A stretch of 64,000 nt of DNA, from positions 2,232,001-2,296,000 of the forward strand of contig OZ024765.1 in the NCBI GenBank assembly GCA_964016885.1, given 5' to 3'. A program made the translations under genes and the position numbers. This document shows, one piece after another, positions 3,624 through 55,433 of this stretch (the stretch's first letter is position 1; every line of letters begins with the position of its first letter). Under the pieces are notes generated by a model. That model was not told the origin of the DNA. It saw only the letters and a program-made list of their open reading frames with translations, and ran no database searches. This stretch comes from Eledone cirrhosa. Lineage: Eukaryota.

Positions 3624-3785
3624 TGTGCATATATATATATATATATAATTAAGGAAATAGCCGTCGAAAGGAATTGAGCTCTGCCGTCGGGGTCATACTT
3701 TTTCCTATACATAATTATATATATATATATATATTTATTTATTTATATATATATAAACAATATATATATGCATTATATATATAAT

Positions 3786-4903: not shown

Positions 4904-5001
<98 letters not shown>

Positions 5002-5054
5002 ATTTAACACTTCACTGCTCGCAAGTGTTTTTTAAGCTTCATATCATGTCTCCC

Positions 5055-5125
5055 TATTTTATCTGATGAGAACACAAATATCATCCTATGATGATATTTG
5101 TTTTTGAAATGCGCATAATAAAATA
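5055..5125 (+). ncRNA. Type-I hammerhead ribozyme motif (TATTTTAT family, long stem II)
   Basis: tattttat CTGATGA gaacacaaatatcatc ctat gatgatatttgttttt GAAA tgcgca TA ataaaata. 8-bp stem I and palindromic stem III. Confidence 0.8.
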
Positions 5126-5230
5126 CATGGAACTCTTTTAATATATGGAACTCTTTTGATCTTATATTATATATATATATATATATTAATTCAAAATATT
5201 AATAAATATAGACATTCAACGTAATCAAAA

Positions 5231-9663: not shown

Positions 9664-10252
9664 GACATATATGTATATATATATATATTTATATATTTAT
9701 ATATATGTAAATACACATATATGTGTATATATATGTGTGTGTATACACATAGTGTGTGTATATATATATATATGTACATATACATTATATATTATATATA
9801 TATATGCATGTATATGTATATATATAAATATATATACATATAAACTCACAGATATCTATATATATGTATATATACATGTGTGTGTGTACCTACGCGTATT
9901 CCAGGATGACATCAGCAAATTGCTTTATACACATACATACATACACACACAGCCATACTCTCACACCACACACACACACACACACACAGCCATACACACA
10001 CACACAGAACCAACCAAATTTAAAGAAAGGGTCAAGTCATTGACCTCTGGAGAAATTCGGACATTTTATTGCTGGAGGGTTATAGCCGAAAATTCCGGCC
10101 ATAGTCCTTTGGTGCGGTGTTTGGTCAGAACGAGGTCGAAGACTTCAAACATCAAGTGGTCCAGCCGCACAATTAATAGTTATATGTGTGTAATCATCCA
10201 CATGTGTGTGTGTGTGTGTCTGTGTGTGTGTGGGTGTATGTGTGTGTGTGGG

Positions 10253-10377
<125 letters not shown>

Positions 10378-10650
10378 CATTCAAGAGCCCGACGGCTGAG
10401 CTCTGGCCATTTCAACATCAAGTGGTCAGCCGCACAATTAATAGTTATATGTGTGTAATCATCCACATGTGTGTGTGCGGCTGTGTGTGTGTATCTGTGT
10501 GTCTGGTTGTGTAGCTGTATGTGTGTGTGTGTGTGTGTGTGTGTGGCTGTATGTGTGTGTGTATGTCTGTGTGTGTGGCTGTATTGTGTGTGTCTGTGTG
10601 TGTGGCTGTATGTGTGTGTGTGTGTGTGTCTGTGTGTGTATGTAAGTGTA

Positions 10651-12859: not shown

Positions 12860-12971
12860 ATTACGGGTTCAATCGGGGGTAACCACCACAGTATTACATT
12901 GACAGCTTTCTTGATAATTTCTACCGAATGAAACAGTTCTAGTCCTGTAGAAGCCATTTCTATATTAAATG

Positions 12972-13057
<86 letters not shown>

Positions 13058-13281: not shown

Positions 13282-13318
13282 CCTTTTGAAAAGCAGAAGA
13301 ACTGCGAAACGGTAAAGG
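13282..13318 (+). ncRNA. Hammerhead ribozyme motif with U3:A8 variant core (copy 1)
   Basis: cctt TTGAAAA gcag aagaa ctgc GAAA cg GTA aagg, then AATAAA. Lies within a ~210-bp repeat at 13247-13456. Confidence 0.65.
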
Positions 13319-13449
13319 AACCAAATAAATATATATATATTTTTTAAAAATAAGACTCCAGTTGCATTTTCGATTTCATCTCTTTTTCTTTATACTTTCA
13401 CTCGTGTAGGACACCTCGGTTATTTTTCATTTTGTAAATAAAACCTCAC

Positions 13450-13497
<48 letters not shown>

Positions 13498-13500
<3 letters not shown>

Positions 13501-13682
13501 CGAGTAGGACCCCGACGGCTGAGCTCAAGCCGTTTCGACAGCTAATTCTGGACAGAATTAGCCGTCGAAACAGCTTGAGCTCAGCCGTCGGGGTCCTACT
13601 CGTTCCTATTACCCACTCTACTCTTAGTATTGAGTACTTTGGTGCGTTATGGTCCATCTGGTTCCGTACCACAATTCCTTCG

Positions 13683-13684
<2 letters not shown>
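13498..13684. mobile_element. Fold-back (TA)n-embedded repeat with hammerhead-like GAAA/stem III half
   Basis: Near-perfect ~50-bp-arm palindrome at 13501-13602 plus a unique tail. Further copies at 45114-45272 and 48859-49059; fragments at 3650, 10385, 36159, 50554 and 51360. Confidence 0.8.
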
Positions 13685-29646: not shown

Positions 29647-29736
<90 letters not shown>

Positions 29737-30340
29737 GTTTTAATATAGAAGAGCTTCTACAGGACTAGAACTGTTTCATTCGTGAGAAATCATCAGGAAT
29801 ATATATATAGTATGTGTGTGGGAGTGTAGGTGTGTGTGTGTGTGTGAGTGTGTTTGTCAGAATCTGTGTCATAACACTTTTCTCACACTCCTGAATATGT
29901 TTCTTTTTTACCTTAACATCCTCCACCACCACCACCACCACCACCACCACCACCACCACCACCACCACCATATCCACACCATCACGACGGCGAACACCAC
30001 CACCACCACCACCACCACCACTACTACCATCACTCCATCATCACAATCACACACCTCCCCCACTACCACCATCACACCACCACTCACGCACCAGCACCAT
30101 CACCACCATCACACCGCCATCATCATCACTACCACCACTACCACCAGCACCATCACCACCACCACCATCACCACCAGTACCAACACCACCACCATCACCA
30201 CCAGTACCACCACCACCATAACCACCAACACCAACACCACCACCACCACAACCACCACCACCACAACCAAGTCACCACGCTCCCACGATCACTACCAAAA
30301 CCCAACTTCACAATCAAACCCACGCACCACACACGGCACT

Positions 30341-34516: not shown

Positions 34517-34895
34517 TGCGTGCGTGCGTGCATGCGCGTGTGTGTGTGTTTAATGGTAGCTATGGTGCTTCCACACGCGGTATGCCAGTTGAGCACTCTA
34601 TGTTCTTACAGAGCAGAGTGTGATATAATATAAAACGAAAAATCAGTGATGCATCTAGACTCAGTTTATTGTGTGTTACAAGTGTTTCGCCGGCAGACAG
34701 CTCGAGACACGATCATTCTATGGATCTGTCTGATTCTAGATCTGCGGGTTCGTGGGACAATATATATATATATATATATGTGGGAGGTGAGTTTTATTGT
34801 AGTACAATAAAGCAATGCAGATATCGGATAAGTAGCACTCTACAGTTTGTAGGACTTATTCACAAGTGTTTTTTAACCTTCATATCATGTCTCCC

Positions 34896-34966
34896 TATTT
34901 TATCTGACGAAAACGCAAATGTCATCGCATGATGATATTTGTTTTTGAAATGCGCATAATAAAATA
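34896..34966 (+). ncRNA. Type-I hammerhead ribozyme motif (same subfamily as 5055)
   Basis: tattttat CTGACGA aaacgcaaatgtcatc gcat gatgatatttgttttt GAAA tgcgca TA ataaaata. Confidence 0.75.
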
Positions 34967-34999
34967 CATGGAACTGTTTTAACCATCTTTTGACCTTAT

Positions 35000-35059
<60 letters not shown>

Positions 35060-36109: not shown

Positions 36110-36160
<51 letters not shown>

Positions 36161-36302
36161 CGAAGGAGTTGTGGTAAGGAACCAGATGGACCATAACGCA
36201 CCAGCGTACTCAATACTTAGGGTAGTAGAGTCGGTAATAGTTTGGTCATACTTTCTCCTATGTATATATATATATATACATTTATATATATACACACATA
36301 TT

Positions 36303-40622: not shown

Positions 40623-40821
40623 TTTTGTTTTAGTCTCATTCATTCTCAGCCCCACACTCATCGACACAGTCTCAACCTCCCGCATCAAATCCTCTGCCTC
40701 CTTCACTGTATTTGTCACCAAAACTATGTCGTCGGCAAATTCAGCATCCGATACCTTTTTCGCCCCAACTCTCCTGCTCTGAGCCGGTGCTACAGTAAAG
40801 CCAGTGTCCTGGTGTTTCTCC
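40623..40821 (-). mobile_element. Inverted 5' segment of an RTE LINE (RT catalytic motif)
   Basis: Minus strand: [65 protein letters not shown], containing the FADD motif of non-LTR RT. Confidence 0.9.
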
Positions 40822-41499
40822 AGTGTGGGGCTGAGAATGAATGAGACTAAAACAAAATATCTGGTAGAGAATGTTGAGAAACCAGAGGGGATCACTAATG
40901 TAGGCGGGAAGCCGCTGGAATTGGTTGAGGACTTCCTGTATTTGGGAGCAAAGATTGGGAATACGGGAGATGATGTGGTTGAGAGGAAGAGCAAGGCCTG
41001 GGCAGCGTGTCACAGCTTGAGATCGGTGTGGAAGTCGGACCTTCGTAGAGACCTGAAAATCCGCCTCTTCATTGCTGTAGTGGAGTCTGTGCTGCTGTAT
41101 GGGTCTGAGACTTGGACACTGACCAAGAGACTCACTCAGATGGTGGATGGGTGCAACACGAGAATGCTGAGGATGGCTCTGAACATTAATCAGTATACAC
41201 TGAGGATGAAAAACTCAGAGCTGTATGGGAGCATCCCAAAAGTCAGCTCAAAAGTGACACAGAGGAGACTGAGGTTGGCTGGACATGCTCACCGACATCC
41301 AGAGTTGACATTGCACTCAGTGCTCCTTTGGGAGCCCCTACATGGACACACTGGAAGAGGTAGACCGAGGTTAACATATGTTGATGCCCTAAGGACAGAC
41401 ACTGGTCTGTTGGAGATGCAGGATATGGCAGCGATAATGAGGGACAGAGACCGCTGGAGAGAACTCGTCCATGGATCTCGGGAATTTTACCCGCCTTAG
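40822..41499 (+). CDS. RTE-clade non-LTR retrotransposon ORF, C-terminal part (5'-truncated)
   Basis: Stop-free frame: [13 protein letters not shown]...EDFLYLGA...[14 protein letters not shown]...[13 protein letters not shown]...[10 protein letters not shown]...DRDRWR. The stop is followed directly by a (TAGA)n tail. Confidence 0.9.
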
Positions 41500-44619: not shown

Positions 44620-44742
44620 GGAGGTGAGTTTTATTGTAGTACAATAAAGCAATGCAGATATCGGATAAGAAGCACTCTACAGTTTGTAGGACTGGAGTAT
44701 AAATAATATATAAGATCAAAAGATGGTTAAAAGAGTTCCATG

Positions 44743-44813
44743 TATTTTATTATGCGCATTTCAAAAACAAATATCATCATGCGATGACATTTGCGTTTTC
44801 GTCAGATAAAATA
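44743..44813 (-). ncRNA. Type-I hammerhead ribozyme motif (matches 34896)
   Basis: Reverse complement of the 34896-34966 motif. Confidence 0.75.
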
Positions 44814-44866
44814 GGGAGACATGATATGAAGGTTAAAAAACACTTGTGGATAGTGCAGTTTTACAT

Positions 44867-44923
<57 letters not shown>

Positions 44924-45061
44924 AGAAACGAAATGAGGTGTGTAGTTACTGTAAACAAAGTTTAAGCTGTTAATATGGACGAAACAAGAGAAGAAAGCCT
45001 TCATCAGCTGTAAACCGCAGATCCGAGATGTTTCGGCGCCGCGGTTTACAGCTGATGAAGG

Positions 45062-45115
<54 letters not shown>

Positions 45116-45270
45116 CGAAGGAAATGTGGTAAGGAACCAAGTGGACAATAACGCACCAAAGTACTCAATACTTAGGGTAGTAGAGTGGGTAATAGGAACC
45201 AGTAAGACCCCGACGGCTGAGAATTAGCCGTCGAAACGGCTTGAGCTCAGCCGTCGGGGTCTTACTGGTT

Positions 45271-45307
<37 letters not shown>

Positions 45308-46568: not shown

Positions 46569-46853
46569 AGTATGGTTTTATAGATATAGTTTCCATTTAT
46601 TAATATATTGTGTATTTACTCCACTAATTTGTTGAGTGCTTTATATTAGTTATAAAAAAATGTTTAAGCTTGTTGAATCCTAACAAATTAAATATAACCT
46701 CTGCATATATATATATTAGAAACTGAGGTGTTTTTTTACAAAATGAAAAATAACGGAGGTGTCCTACACGAGTGAAAGTATAAAGAAAAAGAGATGAAAT
46801 CGAAAATGCAACTGGAGTCTTATTTAAAAAAATATATATATATTTATTTGGTT

Positions 46854-46891
46854 CCTTTACCGGTTTCGCAGTTCTTCTGCTTTTCAAAAGT
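46854..46891 (-). ncRNA. Hammerhead ribozyme motif with U3:A8 variant core (copy 2)
   Basis: Minus strand: ctt TTGAAAA gcag aagaa ctgc GAAA ccg GTA aag. Palindromic ACCGGT stem III. Element spans 46716-46910. Confidence 0.7.
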
Positions 46892-48822: not shown

Positions 48823-48860
<38 letters not shown>

Positions 48861-49056
48861 AACAAGTAGGACCCCGACGGCTGAGCTCAAGCCGTTTCGA
48901 CGGCTAATTCTGGACGGCTAAGTCCAGAATTAACCGACGAAACGACTTCAGCTCAGCCGTCGGGGTCCTACTCGTTCCTATTACCCACTCTACTACCCTA
49001 AGTATTGAGTACTTTGGTGCGTTATGGTCCATCTGGTTTCTTACCACATTTCCTTC

Positions 49057-49144
<88 letters not shown>

Positions 49145-50442: not shown

Positions 50443-50651
50443 CCCTCTTCCTGCTAAATCAAGCGTTAACCTAATATATACCTTCCATATACTGTAACGA
50501 TTGTGTTGTTATTTCTGTTTACCTTTTACATATATATATATATATATATATATAGGAACCAGTAAGACCCCGACAGCTGAGCTCAAGCCGTTTCGACGGC
50601 TAATTCTGGACTATATATATATATATGTATATGTATATATATATATATGTA

Positions 50652-50730
<79 letters not shown>

Positions 50731-51183
50731 TTCGTTTCTGAAAAAAAAATTATATATATATATAAATATATATAATTTTTTATTAAATAACCCCCTTTTT
50801 CTATATATATAAATTTTTTTTAAATAACCCCTTTTTCTATACTTTCTTCTAAATTGTCTGCCCCTGCGTAAACTCTTTTGTTATATCCCCATAGGAAAAG
50901 CAGAAATTTTAAAGCTTGTTGAATCTCAACAAATTAAATATAACCTCTGCATATATATATATATATAGTTTTAATATAGATGAGATTTTACAGGACTAGA
51001 ACTGTTTCATTCTTTAGAAATCATCAGGAATCTGGCTGTCCCCAAAAAAATTTGTGGTATTTATATCTTTTCAGGTGGTAGGAGAGGGTGGGGAGTGGGA
51101 TGGGTGGAGGTCATTGGTTGAAAGAAATATATATATATATATATATGTGTGAGAAAAACCACAGACCCTCCATCTCAACTCTA

Positions 51184-51217: not shown

Positions 51218-51393
51218 AACCAAATAAATATATATATTTTAAAAAAAATAAGACTCCAGTTGCATTTTCGATTTCATCTCTTTTTCTTTATACTTTCACT
51301 CGTGTAGGACACCTCGGTTATTTTTCATTTTGTAAAAAAACCTCACTTTCTAATATATACGGCTTGAGCTCAGCCGTCGGGGTCTTACTTGTT

Positions 51394-51431
<38 letters not shown>

Positions 51432-55292: not shown

Positions 55293-55340
<48 letters not shown>

Positions 55341-55391
55341 TTTTAATATAGATGAGATTCTACAGGACTAGAACTGTTTCATTCATTAGAA

Positions 55392-55433
<42 letters not shown>

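Follow-up and report, generated by a model that had tools for sequence, protein, structure and literature searches.

A fold-back with half a hammerhead and its relatives in the window

Positions 13498-13683 of the window, by which we mean the whole stretch of 64,000 nucleotides of Eledone cirrhosa DNA that was analysed, form a fold-back with (TA)n flanks. Folded as RNA, this segment gives a single long hairpin with one single-copy stretch and a free energy of -113.6 kcal/mol (z = -14.4), a value as good being reached by none of 200 shuffles. The arm motif consists of C-GAAA, a 6-bp stem III with the loop TGAGCTC, the triplet GUC and GGGGTCC. Stem III is clean in the minus-strand arm and carries one change (A at 13572) in the plus-strand arm. 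When a 137-nt pool of the element's letters was shuffled 200,000 times, the half-motif arose 104 times (about 5 in 10,000). The first-pass annotation had described this place as a long fold-back made of the GAAA/stem III/GUC half of a hammerhead. Fold energy, motif and shuffles all bear this out, the three fold-back centres that it quoted match the sequence as given, and the potential of transcripts to form long hairpins is likewise supported. The parts of the element are as follows.

13498..13553, minus strand: inverted arm without tail; read on this strand it begins with the first base of predicted loop II, includes GAAA, stem III and GUC, and meets (TA)n at the short 3′ end
13553..13683, plus strand: tail-bearing arm, 5′-truncated inside predicted loop II and overlapping the inverted arm by 1 nt at 13553
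13567..13596, plus strand: 3′ half of a type I hammerhead, assigned from sequence and the shuffles above, with GAAA at 13567-70, stem III at 13570-75/13583-88 (one change at 13572), the GUC site after 13589 and the would-be 3′ strand of stem I at 13590-96
13610..13683, plus strand: tail, from the short to the long 3′ end, in one arm only; 74 nt here and 77 nt in other copies

The DNA of the window is of animal type and abounds in TA, CA and trinucleotide repeats. By BLAST and alignment we find eight loci with twelve arms in it, and a pattern for the 16-nt core has ten matches at two or fewer mismatches where 0.00 are expected. Four loci are head-to-head pairs (13.5, 36.2, 45.2 and 48.9 kb) and four are single arms (3.65, 10.4, 50.6 and 51.4 kb). 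At least eight copies without any CUGANGA had been counted before, which agrees with the eight loci and twelve arms, CUGANGA being absent throughout. The accompanying description of the copies as mirrored hairpins applies to just three of the eight loci, which are hairpins over the hammerhead half; the 36.2-kb pair has arms that do not overlap and four loci are single arms. The unit also includes a single-copy tail of 74-77 nt that had been left uninterpreted. The other seven loci are listed here.

48860..49058, plus strand: head-to-head pair with the longest tail arm of the window; for 48913-48921 (plus strand) two readings are possible, the 5′ strand of a 9-bp stem II with its loop at 48922-48929 or a templated insertion where the arms meet
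45115..45275, minus strand: head-to-head pair in which truncation of the tail arm falls in loop III and the inverted arm extends to loop II; junction overlap of 2 nt, subfamily variants common to both arms
36160..36258, minus strand: head-to-head pair; inverted arm of about 15 nt, 3-nt filler, tail arm; the arms do not overlap
50552..50609, minus strand: single tail-less arm with (TA)n on both sides; 5′ end at the predicted first base of loop II
3648..3705, plus strand: single tail-less arm of a diverged subfamily, bounded by (TA)n at either end, with a 5′ end that roughly coincides with that of 50552..50609
51359..51395, plus strand: single tail-less arm truncated inside stem III
10375..10416, minus strand: single arm next to (TG)n, decayed, from a sister subfamily, starting at GAAA

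Since its arms do not overlap, the pair at 36160..36258 cannot be a simple fold-back. Upstream of the arm at 10375..10416 lies an unrelated duplicated segment, and as such we rejected it as a candidate for parent sequence. A 65-nt segment is duplicated at 10146-10210 and 10414-10478, around the (TG)n run and this arm.

Ends, junctions and the origin of the mirror

End positions refer to the 48.9-kb copy as axis. Two 3′ ends are fixed; they lie 77 nt from each other, and each abuts (TA)n: the short end at 48981 is found in seven of the eight tail-less arms (the exception is the decayed sister copy) and the long end at 49058 in all four tail arms, whereas the 5′ ends are variable and range from 48914 to 48978. 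Seven of the eight loci end in (TA)n and the remaining one lies beside (TG)n. Each of the four pairs consists of one tailed and one tail-less arm, and all four inverted arms end where the single arms end, not at the end of the tail.

Public DNA reads of organism A, namely two reduced-representation runs and the contig runs X1 and X2, were matched to the arm. The reduced-representation runs contain 19,108 fitting reads out of 12,467,656 and 19,679 out of 12,785,554, and 11,972 of 17,142,217 records match in X1 and 2 of 3,257,293 in X2. Reads leaving the arm into a TA repeat number 1,977 and 1,592 behind 48981, and 1,068 and 1,066 behind 49055. In a few reads the short 3′ end is connected tail to tail with the long one. 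A sister subfamily is seen in the reads as well; it shares the tail and differs upstream, with 2,754 and 3,115 loose reads before 48975 and 665 reads with a consistent extension before 48950.

A long inverted repeat, a TA target, missing coding capacity, the absence of an Rfam match and a very high number of copies (one reduced-representation run has 19,108 fitting reads among 12.5 million) could also be expected of a DNA element (MITE, foldback or Helentron-type) or of a SINE, the GAAA/GUC hairpin then being a chance likeness to a hammerhead. MITEs and foldback DNA elements have inverted repeats at both termini, in MITEs those of a unit of fixed length. The present elements share with them the inverted repeat, the TA target and the high copy number but have the repeat at one end only, vary in length and at their inner ends, and occur as single arms, so that they are not the ordinary TIR MITE that the first-pass annotation had allowed for. 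Fixed 3′ ends combined with variable 5′ ends and single arms are the signature of a retroelement, the half-motif is rare by chance, and neighbouring families with whole hammerheads share the same build. We therefore regard a DNA element or SINE as very unlikely.

The reading which we prefer, and which we consider probable, is that the elements are severely 5′-truncated, dead insertions of the pseudo-LTR (pLTR) end of a Penelope-like retroelement (PLE), two cDNAs having been joined head to head. Insertions of PLEs are described as strongly 5′-truncated and often adjoined by an inverted truncated copy, with a tail of 30-40 bp at one end and a bias to microsatellites including (TA)n (PMC8557442), and PMC8969392 gives the same picture for curators. 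In vitro a PLE enzyme was shown to nick the two target strands at AT-rich sites and to extend both, and reverse transcription uses two internal start sites which delimit the tail, with uncleaved RNA as the main template (PMC11167929). Head-to-head inverted pLTRs with palindromic junctions and microhomology joins have been reported too, self-priming was proposed for them, and small RNAs were found from such elements (PMC3846280). As background, Octopus vulgaris is reported to have 30 recently active Penelope families (PMC13282606).

The endonuclease-bearing PLEs (Penelope/Poseidon, Neptune, Nematis and Hydra clades) have in common with the present elements the 5′ truncation and the adjoining inverted truncated copy, the tail on one arm, the two fixed 3′ ends, the microhomology at the junctions, the (TA)n targets, the hammerhead parts near the end and a cDNA that passes the cleavage site (PMC8557442, PMC3846280, PMC11167929). 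They differ in the tail, which measures 77 nt here and 30-40 nt in PLEs (PMC8557442, PMC11167929), and in that here no ORF or parent is seen, the copies are devoid of CUGANGA and the 5′ ends pile up at predicted loop II. Membership in the PLEs is thus likely, judged from an architecture that works like truncated PLE ends. The hairpins are a tidy and abundant example of a known PLE insertion pattern and are useful for annotation, such hairpins being easily mistaken for MITEs or microRNA precursors.

For truncated PLE insertions we propose the following course. Nicks made by the PLE enzyme in each strand of a (TA)n repeat would prime two cDNAs, one for each fixed start site on the RNA. The cDNAs made from opposite strands would then be joined head to head at their growing ends. 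The parent presumably carries a complete type I hammerhead; its cDNAs would read past the GUC site, still uncleaved, and end no further than loop II, with the consequence that CUGANGA would never be copied. The hairpin would accordingly be a by-product of insertion and not a working RNA. That a hammerhead-bearing parent exists, as had been suggested earlier, is likely.

The inner junctions bear on a question of PLE mechanism, namely twin-primed cDNAs or self-priming. The overlap between the arms is 1 nt at 13.5 kb, 2 nt at 45.2 kb and 3 nt at 48.9 kb; at 36.2 kb a 3-nt filler separates them. In three of the four pairs (13.5, 36.2 and 45.2 kb) the inverted arm holds template sequence that is absent from the tail arm: it extends beyond the tail arm by 3 nt at 13.5 kb and by 26 nt at 45.2 kb, and at 36.2 kb the arms overlap on the template axis solely in the last bases of the short end. 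A self-primed fold-back copies only what the first strand contains. Since these three inverted arms hold more than this and all four end where the single arms do, independently primed cDNAs are the better reading, and the junctions modestly favour separate priming of two cDNAs rather than self-priming at the ribozyme hairpin. The latter would require a later deletion of the centres; loss of palindrome centres after insertion could mimic independent truncation. Concerning the proposal in the first-pass annotation that the mirror arose during reverse transcription, the retroelement origin stands; its further idea of self-priming at the ribozyme hairpin fits poorly with the extra template in three of the four inverted arms. 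Self-priming is moreover not a new idea, having already been put in print for PLE inverted repeats (PMC3846280).

A related possibility, which takes up the first idea of the first-pass annotation and stays within PLE biology, is a non-autonomous palindromic master or true self-priming, where the PLE enzyme copies a fold-back RNA with its apex in loop II, or the cDNA snaps back there, and the centres differ through later deletions. This would directly account for the common stop at 48921-48922 (see below), for subfamily variants common to both arms of a pair and for the nearly symmetric centre at 48.9 kb, and palindromic junctions have been interpreted as self-priming elsewhere (PMC3846280). 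On the other hand a snap-back of tail-primed cDNA should copy the tail, whereas all four inverted arms end like single arms; the 36.2-kb arms have no overlap, single arms are flanked by (TA)n on both sides, and a separate palindromic master would be required for each subfamily. We consider this possibility rather unlikely.

The missing catalytic half and the pile-up of 5′ ends

The arm possesses the GAAA box, helix III and the NUH triplet of a type I hammerhead; the CUGANGA box and the 5′ strand of stem I are absent from the arms. Type I hammerheads in pLTRs are characterized by a long helix II, G10.1-C11.1 and a palindromic loop 3, and in PLEs they are found as opposite-strand pairs and as many single motifs from truncated copies (PMC4209133). 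C11.1-GAAA, a stem III with palindromic loop and GUC are shared with these ribozymes (PMC4209133; Rfam RF00163), and so, provided that the nine 5′ bases of the 48.9-kb copy come from the parent, are its 9-bp stem II and G10.1-C11.1. Stem III has the full 6 bp here, as opposed to the minimal helix III of most animal PLEs (PMC4209133). In contrast to them the arm lacks CUGANGA, the 5′ strand of stem I, an Rfam match (searched with the most complete, that is the longest, arm) and covariation: among seven close arms, two-sided change is seen in 0 of 12 predicted stem pairs, although dead copies are not expected to show any. In the Rfam search of the whole window the best 150 of 469 matches are mostly microRNA-precursor models on TA hairpins, all below gathering score. 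Animal non-LTR retrozymes are likewise short, non-coding, related to PLEs and derived from hammerheads (bioRxiv 10.64898/2026.07.22.740005); the arms differ from them in having neither tandem units nor a complete hammerhead, and in their inverted instead of direct arrangement. By its defining features the arm is not a hammerhead ribozyme, not a non-LTR retrozyme and not a MITE.

The first-pass annotation had also considered a substrate-only element, that is, an arm kept as a hammerhead substrate and cut in trans by a partner RNA supplying CUGANGA. CUGANGA is indeed missing from all twelve arms, and the 3′ strand of stem II, GAAA, stem III, GUC and the 3′ strand of stem I formally make up a substrate strand. 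We looked for an enzyme strand (CUGANGA flanked by sequence complementary to the arm) with two patterns and obtained no match to the family in the window; the second pattern had six matches with two mismatches, five in simple repeats and one in an unrelated motif. CTGANGA was found within 80 nt upstream in none of six arms picked by pattern. In the fold-back copies the binding arms are buried in a long duplex, and about 60 kcal/mol (from -113.6 to -53.9) would have to be spent to free these arms in the 13.5-kb hairpin. Read depth stays without a step across the GUC site, as a comparison of bins 48959-63 and 48964-68 shows, only one of the twelve arms ends near it (the inverted arm at 36.2 kb), and there is no covariation in the stem. 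Cleavage in trans of a substrate-only element is therefore scarcely credible.

The search for a parent covered proteins and DNA. In a Pfam search of 114 of the 165 reading frames of the window no PLE reverse transcriptase or GIY-YIG domain was found, the element copies being too short to hold them; the only matches were a reverse transcriptase fragment and DUF6451 at 40.6-41.5 kb and weak matches to SUZ-C. The tail arm has an open frame of 48 codons; a start codon placed at the base of stem II, where the anole element has one, would share its reading frame. Protein searches with the open frame found no relative. The single representative match to it, P0002, was discarded as a chance sum over 24 tandem repeats in an unrelated hypothetical protein. 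Synonymous bias is not significant in this frame (14 of 35 variants, null mean 11.5, P 0.22), the 35 variants coming from 40 of 68 rows; five rows with changes private to the 48.9-kb copy served as the base. A DNA pattern for the parent had no match in collections of genome contigs and viral contigs, which are of low weight as non-animal collections, and a metagenome scan by DNA pattern gave two loci, both unrelated outside the pattern.

The 5′ ends are located at 48914, 48921, 48921, 48922, 48922, 48925, 48926, 48942, 48952, 48964 and 48978. This list of eleven omits the 10.4-kb sister arm, and the 3.65-kb arm was set at its TA boundary (48927 by alignment). Seven of the eleven arms stop within 13 nt, 48914-48926, and none goes beyond. 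Under the hazard seen to the right of this zone such a stop would have a chance of 8e-9 (4e-6 at the upper bound), figures for a zone picked after inspection of the data and for insertions treated as independent. Plain random truncation fails to explain why the 5′ ends pile up at loop II. If 48913-48921 represents the stem II strand of the parent, loop II opens with position 48922; the first bases of the 48.9-kb reference may instead be a templated insertion.

Read depth falls over the same positions: in bins 48924-28, 48919-23 and 48914-18 it amounts to 493, 163 and 0 in run X16 (one mate direction) and to 12,980, 5,755 and 163 in X1. In the raw-read runs the DNA is cut at 48928, an AATT site, and we set aside a pile of read ends there (4,852 and 4,916) as a likely restriction cut at AATT in reduced-representation libraries. 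Of 455 loose-end rows 19 were covered, and a parent with other upstream sequence could be hidden among the rest; the row at 48921 in X1 comprises 26 contigs, AT-rich and mixed (agreement 0.47).

As to the cause of the stop, the strength of the hairpin is weakened as an explanation by another family of the window, whose copies cross a 12-bp stem II in three of three cases, so that a hairpin alone makes no such stop. A fixed 5′ end in all PLE families of the window was rejected, most of them being ragged; in one family two of three copies share a start. Most likely the source RNA has its 5′ end at this sharp stop at loop II, with roughly even odds against a stop driven by structure or a palindromic master. 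The stop site may resemble an initiator. Should transcription indeed prove to begin within the ribozyme at this stop, the finding would bear on the role of PLE hammerheads and would make that role testable in a high-copy family.

From this one may construct a more far-reaching scheme, which we put forward as speculative and unlikely as a whole. The transcript of the parent PLE would start inside loop II of its own hammerhead, and the RNA would bear only the substrate half at its 5′ end and not cut itself there. Reverse transcription begun at the start sites close by would run off this end and fixed-length 'strong-stop' copies would flood the genome. The catalytic half at this RNA's 3′ end could pair with the 5′ half, giving a split ribozyme that closes on the unit-length transcript. 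In Drosophila virilis Penelope the start is reported well upstream, 46 bp before a 75-bp intron (PMC2377424), the end of which maps to helix I (PMC4209133), and in a plant retrozyme the transcription start also precedes the ribozyme (PMC12029980). The limited literature searched (supplements excluded) held no report of a start inside a PLE hammerhead or of this arm family.

Neighbouring hammerhead families and other repeats

Complete type I hammerhead motifs of other families occur ten times in the window, compared with 0.02 in shuffles (at most one per shuffle, 100 shuffles).

5063, 6174, 29282, 34904, 46511, 50411 and 51508, plus strand: complete type I motifs of several families
4128, 35256 and 44805, minus strand: complete type I motifs of several families

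Most of the ten lie within TA-flanked inserts. The motif at 6168-6212 matches Rfam Hammerhead_1 at 31.7 bits (E 1.5e-6), which falls slightly short of the gathering score, 34. Another hammerhead family has the same head-to-head build of tail arm and inverted arm at 34800-35050, where 34800-34856 is an inverted tail arm joined head to head. This family, with copies at 34800-35050, 44637-44860 and 4997-5200, has an 8-bp stem I and a 12-bp stem II, and its 5.0-kb and 44.86-kb copies have a common start base about 65 nt upstream of CUGANGA.

Several further repeats were seen. At 13282-13325 (plus strand) and 46845-46890 (minus strand) there is a different repeat with a minimal hammerhead of variant U3-A8 core (PMC4209133), with a 4-bp stem I, a 4-bp stem II and a GUA site; it sits directly upstream of the 13.5-kb element, and its 3′ end also abuts the 51.4-kb arm. 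A family with a hammerhead-like core and ragged 5′ ends is present at 12900-12975, 29728-29800, 50960-51060 and 55331-55396. Within (TA)n, the segment 62891-63040 folds back on itself almost perfectly, and each of its arms has a CUGANGA...GAAAC core; adjoining the 45.2-kb copy there is a TA-flanked fold-back with a tail (44925-45065) which has a central GAAAC and CUGAUGA downstream of the GAAAC. Finally, 40623-41499 holds an ORF fragment of a non-LTR retrotransposon (RVT_1, E 8e-6, and DUF6451); as the two matches are on opposite strands, it apparently contains an inverted piece.
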